A stretch of DNA of 64,000 nucleotides from Acidobacteriota bacterium (GTDB lineage: Bacteria > Acidobacteriota > UBA6911). The notes under the pieces are model-generated. The model saw only the letters and a program-made list of their open reading frames with translations. It was not told the DNA's origin and searched no databases. The stretch spans positions 928,001 through 992,000 of the forward strand of contig OY761556.1 in NCBI GenBank assembly GCA_963664705.1, read 5' to 3'. Position numbers and translations under genes: made by a program. Shown piece after piece: positions 40,028 through 54,282 of this stretch (the first letter of the stretch is position 1; every line of letters starts with the position of its first letter).

Positions 40028-41062
40028 TTATAGCCGGACGGTATCCTTCCCCTTCTGATTTCCCCTTGAAATCCGGCTGCCCAGCAGATTCAGGCAGAGC
40101 AGCGTTACAAACACCATACCCAGCGGCAGCAGGTTCCACCAGAAATCCGTCAGCACGCGTGCGTCCTTCAGATTCTTCAGCATGGATCCCCAGGATTCTC
40201 CCGCATCATGAAACCCGATGTTTAGGAAAGAGAGGACAACCTCACCCAACAGGAATATGGGAGCGGCCACGACAAGCTGCGAGAGGATAAAGGGGAGAAG
40301 ACCGGGAAACATGTGCCGGCGGAAAATGTGCCATGGAGAAGCGCCAAGCGAATGGGCCGCTTCCACGAAGACGGAATTTCTGAGCTGCAGGATGAGACCG
40401 CGAATGCCGCGCGCCATGGGTGGCCATGCCACGGCGGCAATTGTCCCGACTATCAGAAGCAGGTTTTGCATGAAGGGCATTTTGGCGGGCAGAAAGGCGC
40501 GCAGGGAAAGCACGATGTAGAGGGCCGGCAGCGCCAGCACAAATTCCGAGAAGCGCATCAGGAGTGAATCGATCCAACCGCCGAAAAGCCCGGCCAGTGC
40601 TCCGATGGAAATGCCCAGCGCGGAGTAGAGCAGCAGCCCGAGCAGCATGACGAGAAGCGAAGTCCTGGTTCCCGCCAATACCCGTGCCAGAACGTCGCGC
40701 CCGAAATCATCGGTGCCGGCCGGATAGTAATAGGGCGGCTGGCTTCTTCCCAGGAGATGGCAATTCATGGGAATCAAACCCAGGAGCCGGTAGGAGTATC
40801 CGGAGTAGAAGAACTGCAGAGGATAGGTCTGCTCCGTGTTTTCCTTGTAGCGCGTATCGAGCGGATCCTTCAATTCCATCCGATAGACAAACGGTACCGT
40901 CAGTGCGGTTTGATTGAAGAAGTGCATCCGGTTGGGAGGCTGGAAAAACTGTTCCAGGTTTTGCATCCCCGGCGGATTGGAGGAGAGGAAGTCGGAAAAG
41001 ATGGAAACCAGCACCAGCAGAAGCACGAATCCCGCGGAGAGCCTGAAAGTCAGCGATTTCAT
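40028..41062 (-). CDS. Peptide ABC transporter permease (DppC/OppC)
   Basis: GTDDFGRD, FVEAA.SLGA EAA loop; ATGA overlap with upstream gene. Confidence 0.9.
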   Translation of the reverse strand: MKSLTFRLSAGFVLLLVLVSIFSDFLSSNPPGMQNLEQFFQPPNRMHFFNQTALTVPFVYRMELKDPLDTRYKENTEQTYPLQFFYSGYSYRLLGLIPMNCHLLGRSQPPYYYPAGTDDFGRDVLARVLAGTRTSLLVMLLGLLLYSALGISIGALAGLFGGWIDSLLMRFSEFVLALPALYIVLSLRAFLPAKMPFMQNLLLIVGTIAAVAWPPMARGIRGLILQLRNSVFVEAAHSLGASPWHIFRRHMFPGLLPFILSQLVVAAPIFLLGEVVLSFLNIGFHDAGESWGSMLKNLKDARVLTDFWWNLLPLGMVFVTLLCLNLLGSRISRGNQKGKDTVRL

Positions 41063-42054
41063 CGTATGCCTTTCCGCATCGCGGGACGCGTTCTGGGATC
41101 CAGCGCCAGCATCGCCGTGTCCGCCAGCAGATTTCCCAGGACAAGGAGAAGACTGCTTCCCAGGACGCATCCGGCCAGCAGGAACAGATCGCGGTTGAAG
41201 AGCGCGTCATAGGTGATCTGTCCGAGTCCGGGCCACGAGAAGATGACTTCCAGGACGAGGCTTCCGCTGAGGATTCCCCCGAGCATCGGCCCTGTGATTG
41301 AGAGCACGGGGTTGAGCCCCGGGCGCAGCATGTAATTCAGAAAAATCCGCGAATTTCCCAGGCCTCTGGCTCGTGCGCAGCGCAGGTACAATAAATTGTC
41401 GTGGCTCTGCATGGCGGCGTATTGAATCCGTTCTATATAGGCGAGAACGGGAATGGTCAGGCAGAGCACCGGCAAACACAGGTGGTGGAGCCGATCGATT
41501 GTCCAGTGCAGGATGCCGATCGGCTGATCGGCCAGCGAGTTCATGCCCCCCAGCGGGAACCAGTGCGTGTGCGCGGCAAAGAGTAGCGCCGACAGTCCCA
41601 GTAGAAGGGAAGGGAGTGAAAGTGCGATCGTGGAAAACAGGCTCAGCAGTTTTCCCGGCGCGCGTCTCTCAAACAGGGCGTGAATGGTGCCGGCAAAAAG
41701 CCCGCCGCCGAAGCCGAGAATCAAAGCCGGAATCCCCATCCAGAGAGTGTTGGCCAGGGCGCCGGTGACTACGGAGAAAACGGGGCGCTGGTAGAAGAGG
41801 GATTGTCCCAGGTCCAGGCGCAGAAGCCTGCCGAACCAGCGCGCAAACTGAATGTAGAACGGCGCGTCCAGTCCATATTTATGCCGGAGCTGGCTTACCG
41901 CTTCCTTCTGGATCGATGCATCGACCAGGTGCGTGCTGAAGAAGTCCCCGGGAATAACTGCGGAGAGCCAGAAGGTAAGGAAGGCAACGGCAAAGGAAAG
42001 CAGCAGGAACTGAGCGATTCGTTTCAATAGGAAGGATGAAGTCCCGGTCCGCAT
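41059..42054 (-). CDS. Peptide ABC transporter permease (DppB/OppB)
   Basis: PGD, GLD.P, DLGQS, ARARGL, EVIFSWPGLG. Confidence 0.9.
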   Translation of the reverse strand: MRTGTSSFLLKRIAQFLLLSFAVAFLTFWLSAVIPGDFFSTHLVDASIQKEAVSQLRHKYGLDAPFYIQFARWFGRLLRLDLGQSLFYQRPVFSVVTGALANTLWMGIPALILGFGGGLFAGTIHALFERRAPGKLLSLFSTIALSLPSLLLGLSALLFAAHTHWFPLGGMNSLADQPIGILHWTIDRLHHLCLPVLCLTIPVLAYIERIQYAAMQSHDNLLYLRCARARGLGNSRIFLNYMLRPGLNPVLSITGPMLGGILSGSLVLEVIFSWPGLGQITYDALFNRDLFLLAGCVLGSSLLLVLGNLLADTAMLALDPRTRPAMRKGIR

Positions 42055-42323
42055 CTGTTTTTGCCAATGGCGGCATCTGTTCTGTCCGGGATGCCGGCAC
42101 GCTCCGATTTTTCGTAATTTGCCCGAATTGAAACTCCCATTGTACTAGAAAGCCGTGATTTTCTATAATGGGCTGCCCTTGAATCAACCCCTCGCTTGCA
42201 TCTGTAGTTCCCTCGGAGTGAGGGCGCCCTTTTGAATTTAGACGCGCGATAGCCGTTGGTCTGTGTAACTTCTAAAAATTAGTGTCTTTGCAGTGGCCTG
42301 CCACCATTTGTCAGGGAGCGTCT

Positions 42324-45300
42324 ATGAAGGCAATGACCAAGCACCTCAAGGATGGCTTCAAACTGAATGATCGCTACCAAATTGAAGAAATGCTGGGGAT
42401 TCAGGACATAGGACAGCTTTATCGCTGCAGCGATCGCGCCACGGGGCGGGGTCGGGCGAGATTGCGGATTCTTTTCGGCGAGTCGCTTGGAGTAGCGGAT
42501 ACAGCGGCTATGAGCGGAGCCTTATCGCTGCTTCGCAGATTGCAGCACCCGAATCTGGGGCGCGTCTTGGATTATGGAATCATTAAGGGGTCTCAAGATC
42601 TGTTTGTCGTTCAGGAATGGGTGGATGGCAAGGATATATGGGTTGGAACCGAGGATGTGGAATTTGAAGAGCTGTTGAGTATTTTGATCGATGTCGTTCA
42701 GTCTGTGCATTACTTGCATACACGCGGACTGGTTCACGGCTGTTTGAATTCCTCGAATATCATCCTGGCCAAGAATGGGAAGGGCACGAGGCCAAAGCTG
42801 TTGGATTTCGGCCTGGTGCGAAGCCTTCCGCAGCATGGAGGCAGCAGACTAGGGAATCCCGTGCACTTGGCTCCAGAGCTTTTGTTGGGTGGAGCCGTCA
42901 CCCAAAGCTCCGATCTGTATTCTCTGGGAATCCTGATTTATCAGTTGTTGACGCGCCGGCTTCCTTTCGAAGATGTTGACCCCGGTTTTCTGGTGGAAAA
43001 GCGCCTGCAGGTAAACATCGATCTGAGGCCGATAGGGCGTCTTAAGAATGGCGCCGTATTGAAGGAGATGTTGTGCAATCTGCTGGAAAGAGATGCGGAT
43101 AAACGATCCGGATCCAGTGAGGGCGTCTTACGGGGGTTGATAGAAGTACTTGGACGCGATACATCACGCCGGAATGCCAGGGATTTGCGAAACCTGTTCT
43201 CCTCATCGCGATTCGTCGGCAGGGACAACGAGCAGAGTCTTCTCAAGAAGTGCGCTAGCCAGGTGGAGGTGAACGGGCGAGGGTGGACCGTGTTTGTATC
43301 CGGAGAAGGAGGTTTGGGGAAGAGCAGGCTTTTGGAGGAATTTTCAAGCTGGGCCCGTTTGGAAGGCTGGCGGGTAATTGAAGGAGCCTGCGATACGCGC
43401 CACCAGGAGCCTTACGGGCCCTACCGGCAGATTCTGGCTCAGACGGAATCCATGAGTGGAGAATCCATATTCCGTTTTGAGAATACGTCACGGTCACAGG
43501 AAATGAGATCCTTTGAACCATCTCCTGAGTTTGCTGCCGGCCAGTTCCGGGATCTTCTGACCCGGGAGCTTGTCCGACGGTTGAGCGTGTGCCCAACCTT
43601 GCTTTTACTGCATGACTTTCATTTATCTGATGAGGCTACCAGTACTGTTCTGGACTATCTGAGTTCGGACATTCAGACGCACCCGATATTGATGTGCGTG
43701 AGTCTGAGATCCTGCGAGGACGCAGGTGGAGGAATTAACCGCGCCATAGAGCAGGCTCTGAGGCAGCAGCGGGGCGAGGTTTTGAACCTTGAGCCTCTGG
43801 TTGAAGGTAGTGTAGGTGAGCTTGTGGCCGGGATTACAGGCGATGCCAGGCTTAAAGGTACCCTGGGATCGTGGATGTATAACAATATAGGAGGAAACCC
43901 ATTCTTTATTGAGGAGATGTTGAAGCATCTGGTGGAGCAGGGATTGCTGCGTTGTGAATTGGATCGATTCCGGTTCAGGAATAGGGATTTGCAGAGATTG
44001 GAAGTGCCTGAAACGATTGGAGCGGTACTGCAGCGTCGACTTGTGCACCTGTCTTCAGCAGCGGGAAATCTGGCAAACTGGCTCGCCTTATTTCACCGGC
44101 CGATTACCAAAAGCCTCCTGACATCGATTTTGGAGTGGGAGGATGCGGAGGTAGCCAAAGCTTTGCAGGAGCTGAGGGAACGGCAGTTGGTGCGGATTGA
44201 AATGGGCGATGCGTTTGAAGTTATTGAGTTAGGCCACGTTCTCTTTGCAGAAGTCATTCGAGGGAATTTGCCGAAGGCTAAGCGCTTGAGGATGCATAGA
44301 AAGATAGCCGAGGTTCTGGAGCGGGAATATGGATGCGAAGGGAATCTCCAGGAATTGGCAATGCATGCAATGGAAGGGCGGACGGGGGTCAAGTCTGTCC
44401 GATATGCGCTGACATTGGCGACTCAGTCCCATGCTGAATTTGCCCACGAAAAAGCACTGCAATGCTATGAATATGTGTTTCGTCATCGAGGCGACCTGAC
44501 GGAGGCCGACCTTTGCCAAGCCGCCATCGAAGCCAGCGATACAATGTTTGCACTGGGAATTCCGACCCAAGCTATCAGGCTTTTGAAAAGAGAGATGAAT
44601 TGGTGCGGCAATATCGATCAGGAATTAAGGGCGGGATTGTTGATGCAATTCGCGGTTGCATATAAGCACTTAGGAGATTTGATTCGAAAGGATACATTTT
44701 GTAAAAAGGGGCTTCATTACCTTCGCCATTCACGTTTTGATAAGAATCCAACAAAAGCATTGCTATGGGCCGAACTGGCTTTCAACGCTATGCTACGATC
44801 TAATCCAAAACTTGGACTAAGGTTGTTAAAAAAAGCCCAATCTGCCTGTCCTGAATCCAATTCAGGGATTCTGGCTGGCAGGATACAAAACCTCGCGGCA
44901 TCTCTTCATCGAGTGGCATGCAACTTCCAAAAGGCTCTCATTGCAGGCGAGAAAGCGGTTAGTATTTTTACCAAGTGTGATAGTTCCTTTCTAGTTTGCT
45001 CCGCCTATTCAACTTTGGGCTTGGTTTTAATGGGCCTAGGAAGATTTTCACTTGCCCTAAGAATGCATCAAGATGCTGTCACGGAAAGCGAAAAGAATCG
45101 CTCGGTCGCGCTAAGGGCTCAAGCATCTGCCAATCTACTAGAGTGTTTGTGCAAAATGGGGCGAATGACAGAAGCTGCGGAGTTGGCCGAAAATGCCAGC
45201 GAATATATTTATGGGCTACAGAATCCATCCATAAGAGATGCTTTTATTGTCATCATGGCCGAAATTAAGCTAAACCTTTGCGATTACAGTGGAGCGCTTG

Positions 45301-47693
45301 ATCTGATCAGGCAGTTGGATGAAAAGAGAATTGGGCGTTCAGCCGTGTATATTTCGGGCCATGCTCATTATGTCGCTGCCAGTGCTTTTTTCTATTTGGG
45401 AGATTTTGATTCAGCGATTCATCACATTGAAACAATTTTTTCTGTTCAACGGGCAGAAGCTCCTTTTTATGAGAGAGAGTTGGCCGCTGCGCTGCAGGCC
45501 CGCATTATGTCCGAACGAGGCCTCGCTGATCGTGCAATCAAGCAATTGCGCTCACTTGACAAAACGGTTACCCGAAAAAAGTGGCCTTATCAGATGTGCA
45601 TCATAAAGCTTCACCTAGCTGAAATAATGCTTCGAAAACAGCTCTATGATACTGCCAAAAAATTAGCAAAGAATGCGTTGCGATTGGCAAAGGGTATGCA
45701 TTCCGAATCCCTAATTGGGCAAAGTTACCTTTTGCTTGGGAGTGCATACTCCAGACTTTTTCACTCTAATGATAAGGACAGATTGTATCTTGGTTATGCG
45801 ATAGAGAACCTGCAATTTGTATGCAACTCAAGCGCCTCCGTTTCCAATGAAACTGTTTGGCGAGCCTGTGCAGAATTGAGTTTGATATATGAAGAGTTGG
45901 CAAATTCGAGAAAAAGCGTCGATTATGCGGAAAAAGCGCATAATTGTTTATCTAAAATCGAAAGACGATTGTCGCAGAGGATGCAGGATTCTTATATAAA
46001 CGCATTCGGACGAAATTACCTGAAATCCGAAGTGCTTCGACTTGCTGATCGGCGTGGAAGCTGTCAAACACAAGATAATTCGGGGCCTGGGCTAATTGCG
46101 AGTATCGAGGGTAGAATACTGTTGCGAGTCAGCGCGGCAGTAAACTCAATTCCGGACATAAACCGACTTTTGGAACGAATATTGGATCAGTTGATCCAGG
46201 CTGCAGGACTGGAGCGGGCTTTTGCTTTTCTTGCTGACAGCTCAAACCGAGATCTTTGTTTGGCCAAAGGCAGAAATCACCTAAGAGAGACTATTCAGAA
46301 CGCGGGAGCAACAATCGACACCATTGTTGAGGAGGTGTTTGAACGAGGTCTGCCTATGGTTAGCTCTAATGCACAAATCGATCCGAGATTTAAGGACAAG
46401 GTAAACATGTTGGGGCATCAAGGCGTACTCCTTTGTGCTCCACTAAGAGTAGCCGACAGGATCCTTGGTGTTCTTTATGCAGATCATTCATTGCCAGAGG
46501 AAAACCTTAGCGAGTCAGTGTTTAACCTTTTTGCCGCCTTTTGCAATCTTGCTGGGATAGCTATTGATAACACAATTGTGCATCAGCAATTGGCTCGGGA
46601 AAAGTCGGAGTTGGAAGAGTATTTTCATCTCGCTCGTGGTGAATACCCCGAAATTGTTGGAAAAAGTGCCGTGGTGGAGTCATTGCGTGATCGAATAGGT
46701 ATGGCAGCCCAATCGCCGCTTGATATTTTGGTTATTGGAGAAAGTGGTACGGGGAAGGAACTTGTTGCCAAAGCCATTCATAGCTCAGGAAATAGAAAAA
46801 ATGGGAAATTTATAGCAGTCGATTGTGGCTCGCTTTCTGACACGCTAGCAGAGGCAGAGTTATTTGGCTATCGCAAAGGGGCGTTTACAGGGGCGTTCGA
46901 AAATCGGCCAGGGCTACTTGAGGCAGCTAACGGCGGGATCTTATTTCTGGATGAAATATCGAACATGCCGTTGAAAACACAACCAAAATTATTGCGCGTT
47001 CTTCAGGAAAGGGAAGTTAGGAGAATTGGTGAAACCATAACAAGAAAAGTGGATTTTCAGGTAGTGTCGGCAACCAACAGAGATATTCTACTGGATGTAC
47101 GAGAGGGGAAATTTCGAGAGGATCTATATCATCGTCTGAGAGGAATGGAAATACGCGTGCCCCCATTAAGGGATCGTTTGGGCGACATCCAACTGTTGGT
47201 TGACTGGCATTTGTCGGATATTAACCGAGCAACTAGCAAGAAAAGGAAGTTTTCACAAGAGGCGAGGGAGATCTTATCTAGATATCACTATCCCGGAAAT
47301 ATACGCGAACTCAAGAACGTTGTTGCTGATGCCTATTATTCAGCAAAGGGCGGGCAGATAAGCGTTGGCGATTTGCCAGTCGAGGTCAGGGGAATGCTTT
47401 CGGAAGAGTTCAGTGCCGACAATGGCATTGCTTCGCGGTTATATATTCAAATTGCTGAAGGACGCGGAACCTTTGAAGAATTGGTAAAGAAGCCGTTCAT
47501 TGATCGCCAGTTAAGCCCACCAATACTTCGAAGCATTATTGAGAGGGCGTTGAGGGAGTCAGCGGGGAGCTACAGAAAGGCATTTTCGATTTTAAAAATC
47601 CCCGGGCGGCAGTATTCGCTGACTATCAGATTTTTAAAGCATTATAAGTGCTATTTAAACTACCAGCAGTTCAGACAGCGCGAATATGATTAG
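42324..47693 (+). CDS. Giant sigma54-dependent activator: pseudokinase + STAND-type ATPase + TPR + GAF + AAA+ + atypical C-terminal DNA-binding domain
   Basis: HGCLNSSN/DFG/APE; FVGR, GEGGLGKS, GGNPFFIEE; GAF (GVLYAD); GESGTGKE, GAFTGA, LFLDEI, YPGNIREL. Confidence 0.9.
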   Translation: MKAMTKHLKDGFKLNDRYQIEEMLGIQDIGQLYRCSDRATGRGRARLRILFGESLGVADTAAMSGALSLLRRLQHPNLGRVLDYGIIKGSQDLFVVQEWVDGKDIWVGTEDVEFEELLSILIDVVQSVHYLHTRGLVHGCLNSSNIILAKNGKGTRPKLLDFGLVRSLPQHGGSRLGNPVHLAPELLLGGAVTQSSDLYSLGILIYQLLTRRLPFEDVDPGFLVEKRLQVNIDLRPIGRLKNGAVLKEMLCNLLERDADKRSGSSEGVLRGLIEVLGRDTSRRNARDLRNLFSSSRFVGRDNEQSLLKKCASQVEVNGRGWTVFVSGEGGLGKSRLLEEFSSWARLEGWRVIEGACDTRHQEPYGPYRQILAQTESMSGESIFRFENTSRSQEMRSFEPSPEFAAGQFRDLLTRELVRRLSVCPTLLLLHDFHLSDEATSTVLDYLSSDIQTHPILMCVSLRSCEDAGGGINRAIEQALRQQRGEVLNLEPLVEGSVGELVAGITGDARLKGTLGSWMYNNIGGNPFFIEEMLKHLVEQGLLRCELDRFRFRNRDLQRLEVPETIGAVLQRRLVHLSSAAGNLANWLALFHRPITKSLLTSILEWEDAEVAKALQELRERQLVRIEMGDAFEVIELGHVLFAEVIRGNLPKAKRLRMHRKIAEVLEREYGCEGNLQELAMHAMEGRTGVKSVRYALTLATQSHAEFAHEKALQCYEYVFRHRGDLTEADLCQAAIEASDTMFALGIPTQAIRLLKREMNWCGNIDQELRAGLLMQFAVAYKHLGDLIRKDTFCKKGLHYLRHSRFDKNPTKALLWAELAFNAMLRSNPKLGLRLLKKAQSACPESNSGILAGRIQNLAASLHRVACNFQKALIAGEKAVSIFTKCDSSFLVCSAYSTLGLVLMGLGRFSLALRMHQDAVTESEKNRSVALRAQASANLLECLCKMGRMTEAAELAENASEYIYGLQNPSIRDAFIVIMAEIKLNLCDYSGALDLIRQLDEKRIGRSAVYISGHAHYVAASAFFYLGDFDSAIHHIETIFSVQRAEAPFYERELAAALQARIMSERGLADRAIKQLRSLDKTVTRKKWPYQMCIIKLHLAEIMLRKQLYDTAKKLAKNALRLAKGMHSESLIGQSYLLLGSAYSRLFHSNDKDRLYLGYAIENLQFVCNSSASVSNETVWRACAELSLIYEELANSRKSVDYAEKAHNCLSKIERRLSQRMQDSYINAFGRNYLKSEVLRLADRRGSCQTQDNSGPGLIASIEGRILLRVSAAVNSIPDINRLLERILDQLIQAAGLERAFAFLADSSNRDLCLAKGRNHLRETIQNAGATIDTIVEEVFERGLPMVSSNAQIDPRFKDKVNMLGHQGVLLCAPLRVADRILGVLYADHSLPEENLSESVFNLFAAFCNLAGIAIDNTIVHQQLAREKSELEEYFHLARGEYPEIVGKSAVVESLRDRIGMAAQSPLDILVIGESGTGKELVAKAIHSSGNRKNGKFIAVDCGSLSDTLAEAELFGYRKGAFTGAFENRPGLLEAANGGILFLDEISNMPLKTQPKLLRVLQEREVRRIGETITRKVDFQVVSATNRDILLDVREGKFREDLYHRLRGMEIRVPPLRDRLGDIQLLVDWHLSDINRATSKKRKFSQEAREILSRYHYPGNIRELKNVVADAYYSAKGGQISVGDLPVEVRGMLSEEFSADNGIASRLYIQIAEGRGTFEELVKKPFIDRQLSPPILRSIIERALRESAGSYRKAFSILKIPGRQYSLTIRFLKHYKCYLNYQQFRQREYD

Positions 47694-47704: not shown

Positions 47705-50095
47705 CTATGCGCGATAAAAATCGATAACGTTTGTATCCAATGTGAATTTTTGAAGAATGCCCGATCGAAGGTTTTCCTGTGCAGAATGCAAAAGTGATAA
47801 AATTGTAGCTCCATCTTTGGGGTAGAATGAAATTCCTATTTGGCAGTCAATAGAAAAACCCTGTCCAATCGTCGGGCGGTTGCCTCTTATCTGCTGTTTC
47901 AATCGTTGAGCGCAACGTAATGCCTGGTCATCCCTGACGCCTGGGAGAAAGACAACAAATCCCTGAGCCCCATAGCAAACAAGAATGTCACTTTCTCGCA
48001 GTTCAGGCTTAATGCTATCCGCAATTTTTTTGAAAACTGAATCAGCCAAATTAGAACCAAAATTCCGTACAATCTGGGGAAGATTTCTGATCTCAATATA
48101 TATTAGCGAAATTGGTGTTCTGTTTTCAGCGGCTGCAGATATCAGTTGCGGGCCGACTGCGGCTAAATATGAGATTCTGCAAAGGCCGGTGACTGGATCA
48201 ATAGTATCACTAGAGGTTTTACTATCCTCGTTGGCTGCATCTGCGAAAAGAGGCGCAATAACATTTGCCACGGTTTGCAGGACTGCAAGGTGGTTCTCAG
48301 TGTAGGAGATTGGATCTTGTCCGTAGAGTGAGAGCGTTCCAAGGCATTCGTCTTCTTTGGTTATGGGCACGACAAGTGTATCGCTAAATGAGAACTGTGA
48401 TTCCCCTGGCGTTCCCTGGAAATCGAGCGCCGGCCCCGTGTTGATCATTGGGCGCTTATGTGCCGCCACCCACCCGCTGATTCCCTTTCCAACCTCCATT
48501 TCTCTGTTTTGAAGTGATTCTGAGAACATTCCGCTAACATATGTAGCCGAAATTTTGTTTTCGGAATTGCATATGAAGAAGGCGCAGGTGGAATATGGGA
48601 CCAAAGCTTTCAGTCGCTGCGCCAGGATGGAAAGAACATCGTTTAGGCGCAAGTGCCCGGAGATTGTACTGCAAAGCTCCGTTAATTGAATTAGCTCGGC
48701 TGGTATGTCCAAACTTGACTTGGCGGTTTTGGTGGCGATATCTGGCTCACTTGTTTCCGAATACTTTCGGAATGACAACTGCGGTGCATTCTCGGATTCC
48801 TTTAGTGCCGCTTGTTCCAGTTCATCAATGTGTTTTGTGAAAATGTCGACAAGGTGTGGATCATAGACCGTCCCCGCCTGATTGCGCAAAATCTCAGCCG
48901 CTTCATCTTTGCCAATAGGCAGTTTATAGGGACGAGAGAACCGGATTGCATCAAAAGCGTCAGAAATTGCAAGAATCCTTGCCCCCAAGGGAATATCCTC
49001 ACCCTTTAGGCCATCCGGATATCCTAGTCCATCCCAGCGCTCATGATGTGAACGAACATATTTTGCCACAGGATATGGGAATCTTACTTGTTGAAGAATC
49101 TCATCTCCCGCAATGGAATGAACCTTGATCTTTTCAAATTCTTTTTTTGAAAGCCGTCCAGGTTTGTTTAGGATATAGTCGTCAATAGCAATCTTTCCTA
49201 TGTCATGAAGCAGCGATCCGGTTTCAATTGCTCGTAACTCATCTGGCTCCCTAATTCCACAAAGTTTAGCCAACCCCATCGCATAAATCTTTACTCGACG
49301 AATATGGCCATAGGTTGTTTGATCTTTTGCATCAACGGCAAGTGCTAATGATTCAACCGTGCGCAGGTACAATTGCTCTTGTTCTTTTAGATGGTCCTGC
49401 GCCTCTGCAACCCTGCTTTTATTGATCTGGTTCCATCCCCAAACAATGCCTATGATTGGTATCGCGGCGAATGCAGCCCAAGAGCCTAGCCATTGGTATA
49501 AAACAGCCATCACTGCAGCACACATTCCTGAAAGAGAGTAATCCATAGAGAGTGGGACACAAGTTTTGGCCCAAAATCTAAAGACACTTTCATCTGATGA
49601 CCATGCGATGGCAGTTGATGTGGAAATCGAGTTAAACAGGAAGAAGCTAAGAGTTAGAAGTGCGGCGGGAACAACAATATCAATTGGTTTGGCGCTGAAT
49701 TGGTGAATGCTTTGATAGATTGAACTGTAGATCCAAGCCCCACACGTGGTGCTTGCAACGTTAAATGCAACCCTATGGGCGTAGACTTTGGGCTTCTGTG
49801 AGACAATCGAGATAATGAGAATGTATACAAAAGTGCCAATAACACATGGTGCGGTTCCATATATCATGGCTATTGCCATGATATATGAATCACCTACTGT
49901 AATTGCAGCTTTGAAATGAGGCAGGTGCAGAAAACAAAAGATGGTAACAAGGGCAACCGCAAGGAGAATCAGCCATCGACTATCATATCCTCCTTTTGAG
50001 AGCTTAATGCCGGCCCAGAGCAATATAGGTATGGCTGAACAAACCAATAGACCTATATATAGCCTTAACTTTGATGGAAGATCTGCCCATGCCAT
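47705..50095 (-). CDS. Membrane-bound HD-GYP phosphodiesterase with GAF and degenerate GGDEF domains
   Basis: About 6-7 N-terminal TMs; DAKD.TT.GH, LLHDIGK, HHERWDG.GYP; GISGWVA (GAF); GAQGF in place of GGDEF. Confidence 0.92.
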   Translation of the reverse strand: MAWADLPSKLRLYIGLLVCSAIPILLWAGIKLSKGGYDSRWLILLAVALVTIFCFLHLPHFKAAITVGDSYIMAIAMIYGTAPCVIGTFVYILIISIVSQKPKVYAHRVAFNVASTTCGAWIYSSIYQSIHQFSAKPIDIVVPAALLTLSFFLFNSISTSTAIAWSSDESVFRFWAKTCVPLSMDYSLSGMCAAVMAVLYQWLGSWAAFAAIPIIGIVWGWNQINKSRVAEAQDHLKEQEQLYLRTVESLALAVDAKDQTTYGHIRRVKIYAMGLAKLCGIREPDELRAIETGSLLHDIGKIAIDDYILNKPGRLSKKEFEKIKVHSIAGDEILQQVRFPYPVAKYVRSHHERWDGLGYPDGLKGEDIPLGARILAISDAFDAIRFSRPYKLPIGKDEAAEILRNQAGTVYDPHLVDIFTKHIDELEQAALKESENAPQLSFRKYSETSEPDIATKTAKSSLDIPAELIQLTELCSTISGHLRLNDVLSILAQRLKALVPYSTCAFFICNSENKISATYVSGMFSESLQNREMEVGKGISGWVAAHKRPMINTGPALDFQGTPGESQFSFSDTLVVPITKEDECLGTLSLYGQDPISYTENHLAVLQTVANVIAPLFADAANEDSKTSSDTIDPVTGLCRISYLAAVGPQLISAAAENRTPISLIYIEIRNLPQIVRNFGSNLADSVFKKIADSIKPELRESDILVCYGAQGFVVFLPGVRDDQALRCAQRLKQQIRGNRPTIGQGFSIDCQIGISFYPKDGATILSLLHSAQENLRSGILQKFTLDTNVIDFYRA

Positions 50096-50161
50096 GATTA
50101 TCTTCTACTTAAATCAGTAGCCTACCAAATCATGTATCGGCAAAAAACCACCTAATCTTAA

Positions 50162-50192
50162 CCTGCAATTAGGGTTAAAACCTAATTGCAGG
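50162..50192 (-). terminator. 12-bp hairpin downstream of micro-peptide ORF
   Basis: CCTGCAATTAGG-GTTAAAA-CCTAATTGCAGG; T-run follows shortly on the minus strand. Confidence 0.6.
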
Positions 50193-50235: not shown

Positions 50236-50298
50236 CTAGCCAACCCAAATAATCATAGGGGTTTCACGGGATTCGAGAATTTCGATATCGGTCTGCAT
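50236..50298 (-). CDS. 20-aa putative precursor peptide MQTDIEILESRETPMIIWVG
   Basis: GGAG RBS 5 nt before ATG; acidic leader-like part + hydrophobic Trp tail; co-oriented with the RRE-M50-HlyD and HD-GYP genes. Confidence 0.65.
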   Translation of the reverse strand: MQTDIEILESRETPMIIWVG

Positions 50299-50359
50299 TT
50301 TATCTCCAAATATCTGAATGGGTTGTGTTTAAAAAAACAACACAATACTCTTGCCGCTG

Positions 50360-50407
50360 TCACAGCCAGAGAATTGCACTCGCCATAGCAGTCTCCTCTT
50401 TAATCAT
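50360..50407 (-). CDS. Second micro-ORF (MIKEETA)MASAILWL
   Basis: ATG 50407, or ATG 50386 with GAGGAG 6 nt upstream; ETxM..I(I/L)W resembles the neighbouring peptide. Confidence 0.4.
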   Translation of the reverse strand: MIKEETAMASAILWL

Positions 50408-50869
50408 TGAATGAACATCCCTCTCTCGATATAGCTCGACCGATCCCAAAGACACCCCAAAAAACCAGGCGCCATTCGGGCCACTTCCAAAGCAATGCCA
50501 CTCACACCGGTTATGAAACCGATATGCAATACGTAAAACAAGCGCGGCTTACTTCTTCAGCTTCGCTCTTACTCAAATTGGGAAAAGCATTCAACCCACA
50601 CCCAAAAGGGCACGGCCTGAACACTCGTCAAGGTGAGAGAGCTATTCGAGAAATTGCTGATCACTCACCGCAACCAAGAACCAGGAGCTAGGTTTCCTGA
50701 TCCCCGGCATTTTACTGTACAACAGACTCTTTGATAAACCAGACCGTAGCAGGGCTTACAGTCTAGTGTCAACAAAATTCTAATTTCTTTTAAAGTTTTC
50801 AGGCTTGTTGCCGACCGTTCCAGGACTAGGTTCGACGCCGTCTCCAAATCGCCCGTCATCCGCCAAATC

Positions 50870-53242
50870 CTAGGGCAGATATTCCCAGAACTCTGTCCGG
50901 AGCCATCGGATCGCCCGCCGGGAGGCGATCTCGTAAATGCTTCTCTTGCCGCAGCGTATCTTTCCGACTCCTGTCATCCCCGCGCGCAAACTGCCGTCCG
51001 GGTTTGGCAACTCCCCCTGAACCGTCACGGTCTTCTGGTTGCCGCCCGAGGTCGCAACCGGGGCAATGCTTCGCACATGCGCTTCATACCAGCGGCGGGG
51101 ATACCCGCGCACTTTTATCGTAATGGGATAGCCCAAATGGATGTCCCCAATTTCCTTCTCCGGAACCGGCATCTCGACAATCATGGTCGAATTGCTGACG
51201 ATTTCGCAGAAGACATTCCCCTTGTCGAGGAAATCGCCGATCCTGTTGTGCAGATACGAAGTCGCCACCGTCCCGTCAATGGGACTCCGGATCTTCATCA
51301 ATTCTACCTGGCGGTCCAGGATCCGGAGCTTCTCTTCAAGCTTGTCCACCTGCGATTCCACCGCCCGGATCGATTCCTTCCGTGCGCCCGCCAGCAGTAT
51401 CTTCAGTTCGCTATGCGCCTGCGCCAGTTCTTTCTTTTTGACGTCCCTGTTCCGCTCGATCTGCTCTTCGAGAACGCTTAATTGCCCTTTGGCCGCCGAA
51501 ACTTCCTTTTGCTGCACTTCATAGGCGGTCCGGTCTCTGTCTACTTCATTCCGCGGGATCAGCTGCGCCTTCAGCAGGTTCTGCGCCCGCTCATAATTCA
51601 ACCTGGCATTGGCAAGCTCCGCTTCTTTTTTGGCCATGGTGTCCCGAAGCACCGCCCGTTCCTGGTCAACCTTGCCGATGCTGGCCAGTTCCGCATTTTT
51701 GGTTTCGATCAGACTTCTGGCTTTCTCGATTTCCTCGGGCCGCGTTCCTGCATTCAACAAATCCAGCGAGGCCTTTTGCGCCTGCAGCTCGCCTTTGACA
51801 TCCTCATAGCTGTTCGACAGCTCGAGGTTTTCGATTTCCGCGAGTACATCACCCGCGCGCACCTGGCTCCCCTGTTCGACATAGATCTTCTTGAGATTGC
51901 CCAGAACTTCCGGCGTTACCGACACTCTCCTGGAGGCGAGCATCGTAAAATCGCCGGATACCTTCATTTCCCAGGGCAGAAAGCCGGCCAGCAGGACCAG
52001 GAGGAGCAGAACCAGGATCAGAGGATTTTTTCGAAAACGTACAATCACCGCTTTGGTCACCTTCCCGGAAGCAGCTACATTATCCCTGCTCGCGACTGGA
52101 ACCGTCATAAAAAAAAGCGCCGAGATCAAAACCACGCCCCACGACTGATATTCTTCCACAAACCAGGCGCCCAGCCTCTGAAACATCACCCAGATGATCA
52201 GCAGCGTAAACAGAGAAGACGCGCTTCCGTAAATAAAAAACAACCGCTTCTCTCTGCGGCTCAGCATCTGTTCAGCGGAAGAACGACTCCCGGTCAGCAG
52301 CGAAAGGAGCCGGTTTTTCACATAGGCAAGGGCCTTCGGTCGCAGGTTCGGCACTTCGATGAGATCGCTCAGGAAATAGTAGCCGTCCAAACGGATCAAT
52401 GGATTGAAGTTGAGAATGGTCTGAATCGCGTTGAATGCTATCGCGATCAGGCATATCCGGCTTGCAAGCGTTTCCGTCGCCAGGAGTCTCCAGCCAATCG
52501 TTGCGATGGCCCAGAGAATGACCTGCGCATAGGCGCCGGCAAGTGTGATCCGGATCCGTTCTCTCTTTTTCAGCAGCCAGGCATCACTGACATTGCAGTA
52601 GAAAGCCGGAATAAAATAGAGGATCAGGAACCCCATCTCGGTTACCTTGCCTCCAAAATGCTTGAGGGCAAGGCCGTGGGCAAACTCATGAATGGTCATG
52701 ATCGCAAAGATGACAACCAATGCCGTCGGGATGGAGGAAATGGTAAAAATGGCTCCCATCGAGAGAAACAGGGACTCGCTGTTTAGTATCGAAATGATGG
52801 CGGATACGAGCGCTGCGATCCACACCAGCGCTGAAAAGGCGGGGGCAAAGCAGAAGCGCAGCCTGCGCTCCAACCGGGTGAGAAGCTGGTCCGGGTTAAA
52901 GGCGTGGATTTTGATCGACAGCAGACTTCGGATGATCGTTCGTTTTCTTGCGGCCGCGCCGCTCAGCTTATTCCAGCAGTATGGGTGATCCAGGAGCAGC
53001 AGCGCCTGCAGTTTTCCCAGGAATTCCCGCAACTGCTCTTCCGTGACAGGCGTCTGGTGCTTCTCGGTGACCTGGGCCGCGATGGCAGGCAGATCATTCT
53101 GCCCGTTCAAAAGATCAAGAACGGAAGCCTGCACCGGCGTGAATCGATAAAAGCGCAGAGTAACCGGATCTTTTACAACGACACCGGCATTCTGTTCCGA
53201 ACGAATGTCCAGATCCGATCGCAGCTTCGCATGATTCGCCAT
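50870..53242 (-). CDS. PqqD/RRE-like domain + M50 intramembrane metalloprotease + HlyD-type membrane fusion protein
   Basis: VVKDP.T.RFYRF..wHTH; HEFAH, NFNPLIRLDGY; lipoyl-like GSQVRAGDVL, long coiled coil, IRSPIDG, LRAGMTG. Confidence 0.88.
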   Translation of the reverse strand: MANHAKLRSDLDIRSEQNAGVVVKDPVTLRFYRFTPVQASVLDLLNGQNDLPAIAAQVTEKHQTPVTEEQLREFLGKLQALLLLDHPYCWNKLSGAAARKRTIIRSLLSIKIHAFNPDQLLTRLERRLRFCFAPAFSALVWIAALVSAIISILNSESLFLSMGAIFTISSIPTALVVIFAIMTIHEFAHGLALKHFGGKVTEMGFLILYFIPAFYCNVSDAWLLKKRERIRITLAGAYAQVILWAIATIGWRLLATETLASRICLIAIAFNAIQTILNFNPLIRLDGYYFLSDLIEVPNLRPKALAYVKNRLLSLLTGSRSSAEQMLSRREKRLFFIYGSASSLFTLLIIWVMFQRLGAWFVEEYQSWGVVLISALFFMTVPVASRDNVAASGKVTKAVIVRFRKNPLILVLLLLVLLAGFLPWEMKVSGDFTMLASRRVSVTPEVLGNLKKIYVEQGSQVRAGDVLAEIENLELSNSYEDVKGELQAQKASLDLLNAGTRPEEIEKARSLIETKNAELASIGKVDQERAVLRDTMAKKEAELANARLNYERAQNLLKAQLIPRNEVDRDRTAYEVQQKEVSAAKGQLSVLEEQIERNRDVKKKELAQAHSELKILLAGARKESIRAVESQVDKLEEKLRILDRQVELMKIRSPIDGTVATSYLHNRIGDFLDKGNVFCEIVSNSTMIVEMPVPEKEIGDIHLGYPITIKVRGYPRRWYEAHVRSIAPVATSGGNQKTVTVQGELPNPDGSLRAGMTGVGKIRCGKRSIYEIASRRAIRWLRTEFWEYLP

Positions 53243-53439: not shown

Positions 53440-54282
53440 ATGCTATTCAAAAAAGGTATCTTGGTTTTCATGGTGCTGGCCGTGGCTGTTGCGTTGTGCG
53501 GTTGTGGAAAAAAGTCTGAAGAGTCGCAGGGAGAAACCGCCGCGCCCGCAAAAGCTGTGGTAAACCCGGGGGAAATGGTTTTGATTCCTGCCGGCGAATT
53601 CATAATGGGCAGCAATATCAAGGGTAGCGACGGCAAAGAAACCCTTGCCTTTCCGGAACACAAAATGAATTTGCCCGCCTACTGGATTGATAAATATGAA
53701 GTAACAAACTTCCAGATGCTCGATTTCGCCATTAAAGAAAAATATACCGGCGAAGGCGCCAAAGAGGGAAAAGACTGGAGACTCTTTGCTACTCCGGACA
53801 AAGCGCTGGTCCCCGTTCAATATGTCACCTTCAACGATGCCCAAGCGTACTGCAAGTCCGTAGGGAAGAGACTTCCTACGGAAGCCGAGTGGGAAAAAGC
53901 CGCGCGCGGTGCGGATGGGAAAGCCTATCCCTGGGGGAATGAATGGGTAGACGGCCGCAGCAATACCGCCGAAACCGGACTTCTGAAGCCCGCTAATGTG
54001 GGCGAGTACGACGACGTGAGCCAGTATGGTGCCCACGATATGCTGGGCAATGTGCGGGAATGGACTTCGACCCCGTTTGAACTCTATGCCGGAAATACCG
54101 CCAAAAACCCGGGCAAAGGACGCTTTGTTGTCCGCGGCCTGTCCCCGAACCACAAGGGCAAAATGGCTCACCTGTGGGATCGCGACGGATATCCCGCCGC
54201 ATTTCTTGGCGATGTAGGCTTCCGTTGCGCCAAGGATGCAACTCCGGAAGATGCCGCCAAGGCTGCCGCACCGGCCAAGTAA
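53440..54282 (+). CDS. FGE-sulfatase (SUMF1/PvdO-like) domain lipoprotein
   Basis: Lipobox LCGC; IPAGEFIMGS, RLPTEAEWEKAARG, DMLGNV.EW, GFRCA. Confidence 0.88.
   Translation: MLFKKGILVFMVLAVAVALCGCGKKSEESQGETAAPAKAVVNPGEMVLIPAGEFIMGSNIKGSDGKETLAFPEHKMNLPAYWIDKYEVTNFQMLDFAIKEKYTGEGAKEGKDWRLFATPDKALVPVQYVTFNDAQAYCKSVGKRLPTEAEWEKAARGADGKAYPWGNEWVDGRSNTAETGLLKPANVGEYDDVSQYGAHDMLGNVREWTSTPFELYAGNTAKNPGKGRFVVRGLSPNHKGKMAHLWDRDGYPAAFLGDVGFRCAKDATPEDAAKAAAPAK

Follow-up and report, generated by a model that had tools for sequence, protein, structure and literature searches.

Peptide signals that fall into allelic specificity groups are a hallmark of Gram-positive bacteria, and those of the RRNPP/Phr/SHP type are linear peptides re-imported by Opp. 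In the staphylococcal agr system (AgrB/AgrD/AgrC), as set out in the accessible text of its description, a membrane protease, a pro-peptide and a membrane receptor are encoded in one locus, where a hypervariable block covers the signal and the sensor domain of the receptor between conserved flanks and defines the specificity groups (PMC12312760). In the daptides (MpaA/MpaP), according to the accessible sections of the preprint, an RRE-HExxH site-2-type protease adjoins short precursors with an aliphatic core, and the peptidase MpaP, which depends on its RRE, takes off a leader of the form ELExMEAP (L at -7, P at -1) (bioRxiv 10.1101/2023.03.08.531785). On the receptor side the closest described proteins are those of the order MASE9-HD-GYP-GAF-GGDEF (PF20972), which have eight membrane helices; their ligand was suggested to bind within the membrane, and the text of that preprint available to us names neither a ligand nor a peptide neighbour (bioRxiv 10.1101/2021.11.05.467447).

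Here we describe a locus from an Acidobacteriota bacterium that resembles each of these systems in part, and which is neither a daptide nor an agr locus by the features that define them. It lies in a stretch of 64,000 nucleotides, the window in what follows. We consider it probable, at roughly 0.6, that the locus encodes a kin-specific peptide signal, cut after Pro14 of its precursor, that would tune a c-di-GMP phosphodiesterase through the MASE9 domain, a reading drawn from comparative sequence analysis. Our literature search, with subscription journals and the bioRxiv supplements (Figure S5 of the MASE9 paper, the daptide RRE-family tables) lying outside it, found no description of such a peptide-MASE9 system. 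The genes and peptide features are as follows.

50236..50298, minus strand: precursor gene MQTDIEILESRETPMIIWVG, 20 codons, ATG to TAG
Within 50236..50298, minus strand: leader MQTDIEILESRETP, residues 1-14, followed by the predicted core MIIWVG
50304..50307, minus strand: Shine-Dalgarno sequence GGAG of the precursor gene, 5 nt ahead of the ATG
50360..50386, minus strand: leaderless micro-gene MASAILWL, 8 codons, GAGGAG ribosome-binding site, 61 nt upstream of the precursor gene
50870..53242, minus strand: fusion of an RRE (PqqD-like), an HExxH intramembrane metalloprotease and HlyD, the predicted maturation and export protein, upstream of the precursor gene
47705..50095, minus strand: MASE9-HD-GYP-GAF-degenerate GGDEF protein, the predicted receptor and c-di-GMP phosphodiesterase
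42282..47693, plus strand: kinase-like-AAA-TPR-GAF-sigma-54 activator, 1803 residues, convergent on the HD-GYP gene, an associated gene
40028..42054, minus strand: oppB/oppC-like peptide ABC permeases, candidate re-import route

The initial annotation had proposed an unannotated, precursor-like reading frame of 20 residues with a well-spaced GGAG ribosome-binding site, and both proposals were borne out in relatives. A search with the downstream HD-GYP protein as the query gave matches in 42 of 61 genomes. The set used for comparison holds the stretch from the protease gene to the HD-GYP gene at 21 family-level loci, those of the window and 20 relatives; L005, L018, L019 and L042 were omitted for a contig end too near, and L034 for a transposase-like gene between the precursor and HD-GYP genes. 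The precursor is present at all 21 loci, in one to three copies each, and a Shine-Dalgarno motif precedes 27 of the 28 copies. Synonymous change, which the initial annotation had named as a check, was far more frequent than non-synonymous change: leader codons 2-14 gave a pS of 0.55 and a pN of 0.09 (pN/pS 0.17, 20 sequences), variation is concentrated at the third codon position (0.30 versus 0.05 and 0.06 at the other two) and the stop codon interchanges between TAG and TAA. On this codon evidence the precursor leader is under purifying selection. Stops and frameshifts were also looked for in the homologous loci, where a copy with a frameshift (L039) and a copy cut short (L176) were all that we found; the L039 locus contains many split reading frames, and its second precursor copy is intact.

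A motif scan, also suggested at the outset, was carried out on metagenomes with a degenerate DNA pattern for the first nine codons of the precursor. It gave 69 matches, of which 57 were true precursors, 11 were unrelated and one was truncated in the right context. Pooling loci and metagenomes gave 68 distinct precursor sequences. The named relatives that carry the locus are all Acidobacteria/Acidobacteriota, known from metagenome assemblies. Neither the precursor nor its relatives matched Pfam or NCBIfam, and a motif scan of the window's genome found no second precursor gene. The stretch in the window is present whole in one sample, which may be its source, and as short identical pieces in a second (three runs, at contig level, a presence that says nothing on expression). 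Judged by its conservation, the reading frame is a real gene of an undescribed peptide family.

The precursors share a leader of the consensus MQT[ED]IEILExR[ED][NT]P and a core of the form x[IV][LVIF]W-x. Among the 68 distinct sequences M1, E6, L8, E9 and R11 are invariant and P14 is present in 66, the Trp stands at position 4 after residue 14 in 63, and the five-residue cores come in 41 different versions. Across this set, then, the leader is fixed while the core varies. The segment ILESRETP aligns with the register of the daptide leader (L-7, E-6, E-3, P-1), with the invariant Arg standing where the daptide leader has Met. Because it fits this register, MIIWVG is the predicted product, and cleavage after Pro14 is inferred by analogy with the daptide leader. 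At two loci of the phylum with more distant RRE-M50-HlyD homologues, L103 and L109, the precursors share the leader motif and their cores are unrelated, which supports recognition of the leader by this protease family. The precursors at these two loci (L103 5033-5670, L109 5800-5952) are 49-54 residues long and rich in Gly, Asn and Pro, with the leaders LEERIAP and LESRDAP; they match no family and form a separate undescribed peptide group.

The protein encoded directly upstream of the peptide genes had NF041824 (daptide_HExxH) as its best specific model, at 220.8 bits and an E value of 3e-65, below the cut-off of 300. The PqqD and M50 matches were weak and the HlyD match was strong. The protease motifs HExxH and NxxPxxxxDG are retained in 23 of 23 rows and the HlyD adaptor at all family loci. 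The locus holds no gene for an outer-membrane channel, and many TolC-type channels are encoded elsewhere in the genome. Compared with the daptides, as far as the accessible text defines them, the protease here differs in its fusion to HlyD and its score below the family cut-off. There is no MpaB/C/D/M, none of the DUF-RRE, dehydrogenase, aminotransferase and methyltransferase genes of a daptide cluster lies between the conserved flanks, and the invariant C-terminal Thr of daptides occurs in only 12 of the 68 precursors, the window's own ending in Gly. The invariant Trp, the signalling enzyme next door and the diderm host are further differences.

In the predicted receptor, PF20972 (MASE9) matches the region N-terminal to HD-GYP at 23.9 bits against a cut-off of 24.3, and at 27.5 bits, above the cut-off, in another search. 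The HD and HHExxDGxGYP motifs are intact in all family rows aligned, the phosphodiesterase activity being predicted from them. The GGDEF motif is lost in the family and retained in distant relatives. Domain order and the eight membrane helices are those of MASE9-HD-GYP-GAF-GGDEF proteins, and the degenerate GGDEF motif and hypervariable sensor set the present family apart from them as they are described in the accessible text.

The hypervariability of the sensor follows that of the core. Between L027 (core CILWG) and L033 (core SVLWM) DNA identity is 85-97% over the micro-gene and the codons of the leader, drops to 31-56% across the core and on through MASE9, and is back at 83-90% in the HD domain. 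L154 and L200 are 97% identical in the HlyD part and 37% in MASE9, and their cores differ. A tree of the protease backbone (23 rows; L004, L034 and L143 omitted) joins L027 with L033, L140 with L142 and L039 with L139 as sisters, and within each of these pairs the cores disagree. The tree for MASE9 (25 rows; L143 omitted) instead sorts by core across genera, joining L033, L039 and L142 with SVLW[ML] cores (support 94/81) and L041, L139 and L140 with xIVWY cores (97/94). For groups that were named after the pairwise identities had been seen, AU tests reject a clade of L027 with L033 for MASE9 (p 0.004) and a clade of the SVLW trio for the backbone (p 5e-7). With the backbone removed, the partial correlation of core similarity with MASE9 identity was 0.36, compared with 0.04 for HD, 0.05 for GAF, 0.03 for GGDEF and 0.05 for the sigma-54 domain (range -0.06 to 0.05); intermediate values were found for the RRE (0.21), protease domain (0.15) and TPR region of the activator (0.15-0.20). 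Kin are not independent, so permutation p values overstate this correlation, and rows of frameshifted genes were pieced together from alignment parts. In 13 further metagenome loci (18 with enough sequence, minus 5 near-duplicates) the result was replicated, with r 0.43 for MASE9 and 0.14 for the HD control. These comparisons show the core and MASE9 to be exchanged and inherited together, as a single cassette.

The core codons lie only about 140-450 nt from MASE9, so one recombination tract spans both and linkage alone can give co-transfer; MASE9 may have hitchhiked with the core through adjacency. There are also some pairs, such as L044 and L032, with near-same cores and only moderately similar MASE9 domains (67%, versus 82% in the backbone, for these two). 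Taken as a whole, the comparative case for a cognate pair of peptide and MASE9 is strong. The sharp borders of the cassette, seen repeatedly, recall the hypervariable region of agr. When the two systems are compared, to the extent that agr is covered in the text available, no homology was found: the neighbours have no AgrB match and there is no conserved Cys for a thiolactone. The receptor here is a c-di-GMP phosphodiesterase with an S-component-like sensor and not a histidine kinase, and the protease lies outside the variable block.

Pairs of toxin and immunity protein diversify as cassettes too, and it is conceivable that the core is an antagonistic peptide, bacteriocin-like or a modified RiPP, and that the MASE9 protein serves in self-recognition or immunity, with an unlinked enzyme or a lipoprotein with an FGE domain modifying the core. 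There is a precedent in the M50 protease EpeP which, in the part of the literature on it that was accessible, matures and exports the antimicrobial EpeX. The FGE-domain protein (sulfatase-modifying-factor-like; 53440-54282, plus strand) has a lipoprotein-like N-terminus, and its gene, which diverges from that of the protease, is syntenic across the family; the protein is a possible periplasmic modifier or a case of mere synteny, and the gene has this synteny in common with housekeeping genes. We nevertheless consider antagonism quite unlikely, given that the core's partner is a complete signalling enzyme whose HD-GYP motifs are intact and that the locus contains no known RiPP-modifying enzyme. 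The daptide families of RRE and dehydrogenase were not found in the genome either: NF041822 had no match there, though 9 controls match, and NF041823 had none there nor in any control. The RiPP-type leader ending in Pro and the Trp core of the initial annotation stand, with the daptide register and the RRE-HExxH protease directly upstream in their favour; a modified RiPP product is not supported.

The activator raises the question of whether the peptide has a different receptor. Its kinase domain has HGCLN in place of HRD, as in pseudokinases, and GAFTGA is intact; the paralogue in L190 retains HRDLKPGN. No RRNPP family is among its top Pfam/NCBIfam rows. In relatives, oppA (63% identical) lies between the activator and oppB. 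Here it sits elsewhere, at G000:C1:6890895-6892739 (L098), about 2 kb before the contig end, and is followed by an Hpt gene with a sigma-28-type box. Were the TPR region the receptor, by RRNPP-like logic, MASE9 would co-vary by hitchhiking. The intermediate correlation of the TPR region with the core and the Opp genes adjoining the activator would fit, as would seven distinct metagenome loci without HD-GYP (L159, L162, L169, L174, L186, L190 and L151) that hold precursor genes apart from protease and HD-GYP, in three cases behind an activator paralogue. This reading is very unlikely in our judgement. In the L027/L033 swap the TPR region stays at 77% identity while MASE9 falls to 47%, and the Trp motif accompanies MASE9 at many loci that show no activator gene. 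The locus resembles RRNPP/Phr/SHP systems in the short linear hydrophobic core, the adjacent Opp permease and the predicted sensing on the cytoplasmic side. There is no Sec-type signal peptide, and the co-varying partner is a membrane domain and not a soluble TPR regulator; the adjacent TPR-containing activator co-varies weakly and is not swapped with the core. The seven stand-alone loci have sigma-54-like boxes, at four of them with a score reached by at most 4% of shuffles, a hint from sequence at feedback of the activator on the peptide genes, although the main locus has no such box. A sigma-54 promoter at the main locus was rejected, with best scores at chance level in 20 of the 21 loci. 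L162 and L175 have the same core, VILWY.

Four further elements surround the peptide genes, the promoters being judged against consensus sequences.

50743..50772, minus strand: sigma-70-type promoter of the peptide genes, TTGACA-N18-TACGGT, after the protease gene
50549..50669, minus strand: conserved RNA structure in the peptide genes' long 5' leader, without a match in Rfam
50162..50192, minus strand: hairpin that follows the peptide genes, its 12-bp inverted repeat perfect and its loop 7 nt long, 43 nt past the precursor stop
50134..50160, minus strand: sigma-28 (FliA)-type promoter of the HD-GYP gene, TAAG-N15-GCCGATAC

TTGAC[AT] is found upstream of the peptide genes in all 19 loci where the region is available (the L004 and L015 cut-outs aside). 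The RNA motif, of which the window's genome has a single copy, shows compensatory change in 6 of 16 base pairs and is a candidate cis-regulatory RNA on this comparative evidence; it has an invariant unpaired 5' segment and a distal stem of variable length. A search of the intergenic region against Rfam gave four chance-level rows in the window and none in 14 loci. The leaderless micro-gene is present in 19 of the 21 loci with a near-invariant [AG]ILW[LF] ending, a pN/pS of 0.09 (11 distinct sequences) and all three stop codons. Longer forms such as MSNPSAILWL retain NP ahead of the core, as if derived from a precursor.

The hairpin that the initial annotation had placed about 45 nt downstream is real. 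Counting G-U pairs it reaches 15 bp, and the fold of the region has a z of -4.1, a stability that none of 200 shuffles equals. Only 8 of the 21 loci have inverted repeats of at least 10 bp at this position; the sequence is not conserved, and a U-tract is mostly lacking. Terminator prediction on the window did not call it as an intrinsic terminator, and a conserved element of that kind was rejected, being uncalled here and unconserved in sequence across the 21 loci. A sigma-28-type -10 box lies 30-46 nt from the HD-GYP start codon in 13 of the 21 loci; FliA is encoded in the genome, where two MCP (chemoreceptor) genes and a flagellar Maf gene have the same motif ahead of them. Since the HD-GYP gene has its own sigma-28-type promoter, the hairpin most likely ends or protects the peptide transcript, as a terminator or 3' stabiliser. 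The proposal that it steps down expression from the peptide to the HD-GYP gene is thus upheld as to the hairpin itself, and weakened by the rarity of the repeats and the separate promoter. Short reading frames with an invariant Trp codon, then a hairpin, upstream of a gene could also describe Trp-sensing leader peptides of the attenuator type for the HD-GYP gene. We find this barely credible. The frames occur in one to four tandem copies per locus, some copies have no downstream partner gene, and an RRE-type leader, an unconserved hairpin and a separate HD-GYP promoter all argue against it.

The Trp motif is not confined to the precursor. In distant loci, where the HD-GYP protein is about 30% identical, a subtilase gene lies just upstream of the HD-GYP gene in 10 of 18, and nine of the ten subtilases have tandem tails of the form x[IVS][ILM]W, such as DQVIWT, DGIIWD and DSILWG. 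Leaderless Trp micro-ORFs precede the sensor gene in 11 of the 15 distant loci scanned, for example MKIIYWTE and MNKMTCKGILWG. Sequence comparison thus finds the same motif recurring beside the same sensor in other molecular forms. The window's genome itself has three Trp-tailed subtilases elsewhere, and after two of them comes a histidine kinase whose MASE9-like domain is 26% identical (E 4e-15). These two and the kinase stand at a contig start (G000:C1:3-5450, L097), with amidase and volactin (PF25216) genes after the cluster (G000:C1:5621-7777, L097). The third (G000:C1:4642709-4644730; L099 8709-10730, minus strand) has a GDGVLW repeat tail and no MASE9 neighbour was seen. With three such subtilases still in the genome, genome-wide replacement of the Trp-tailed subtilase by the peptide was rejected. 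One precursor core from a metagenome, GVLWGD, equals a tail repeat in the window's genome.

The model of the MASE9 domain has a pLDDT of 90 and eight helices. Foldseek gave no match in the PDB at E <= 0.001; a wide structure search returned the ECF S-component fold (best Z 14.3, rmsd 3.5, 183 residues aligned), and the 15 top rows were all ECF-type. The likeness extends to NikM/CbiM (4m5c, 5x3x), RibU (5kbw) and ThiT (3rlb) at Z 10-14. It differs from them in an extra C-terminal helix leading to the cytoplasmic enzyme, at 8-16% identity and with no ECF module in the locus. The pocket in which ECF S-components bind small ligands is closed off by three loops. As the last MASE9 helix has to run on to HD-GYP in the cytoplasm, the fold would be inverted and the pocket loops would face the cytoplasm. 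Positive-inside counts agree with this orientation, and the pocket is predicted to open to the cytoplasm. Most family MASE9 proteins start with MxWxxLP (the N-terminus of the HD-GYP protein, in the region of 50093-50095 in the window). In NikM/CbiM the N-terminus enters the pocket, and by this analogy the N-terminal Trp of MASE9 proteins could, speculatively, be a tethered mimic of the peptide. Of 25 co-varying MASE9 columns 15 are on the cytoplasmic side (p 0.17), neither side being enriched. A complex prediction from the MASE9 alignment and a 36-residue Trp-repeat micro-ORF of L049 scored 0.00 and bears neither way.

With a cytoplasmic pocket, an exported core would need re-import, for which Opp is the candidate, or entry through the membrane. 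It is possible instead that both peptides are intracellular regulators of MASE9 which never pass between cells, that the RRE-protease-HlyD protein matures or removes the leader-bearing one, and that c-di-GMP reports translation or export capacity. The predicted position of the pocket loops would suit this, as would the leaderless micro-peptides, lacking export signals, beside the sensor across the class. A purely internal ligand would hardly account for 41 cores and recurrent swaps of the cassette beside an unchanging leaderless peptide, or for an HlyD adaptor retained throughout the family, and we consider this explanation unlikely, if deserving of weight.

For a signal between kin the steps may be envisaged as follows. 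The RRE of the upstream fusion would bind the precursor leader, the HExxH protease would cut after Pro14 to free MIIWVG, and the HlyD part would help the core out via a TolC-type channel encoded elsewhere. The core would then return, probably by Opp, to its cognate MASE9, and its binding would reset c-di-GMP breakdown, in a direction that we infer. The invariant leaderless MASAILWL would act inside the producer as a default ligand that sets the threshold, and the sigma-28 promoter would limit the receptor to flagellated cells. The overall interpretation in the initial annotation is partly supported by this picture; it did not include the second micro-gene, the protease encoded upstream or the way in which core and sensor co-vary.

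A broader proposal, which we offer tentatively and with less than even confidence, is that Acidobacteriota may recognise kin by a peptide language assembled out of RiPP parts. A membrane protease guided by an RRE would free pherotype-specific Trp peptides, and an inverted S-component, MASE9, would read them from the cytoplasmic side and set c-di-GMP. The 8-codon leaderless gene would be a built-in competitor, subtilase tails and micro-ORFs would be alternative sources of ligand, and peptides with the Trp motif would be the general ligand of MASE9. A diderm version of allelic peptide signalling that feeds straight into c-di-GMP turnover was not found in the literature searched. An RRE-dependent RiPP protease is apparently used here without any modifying enzyme, and standard annotation misses these genes of 8 and 20 codons in a phylum that is abundant and largely uncultured. 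Cognate and non-cognate pairs occurring in nature, for example of the CILWG, SVLWM and MIVWY types, are at hand for work on specificity. If the core is a signal read by MASE9, this orphan sensor family would gain its first ligand, for which the core is a concrete candidate that is cheap to synthesise.
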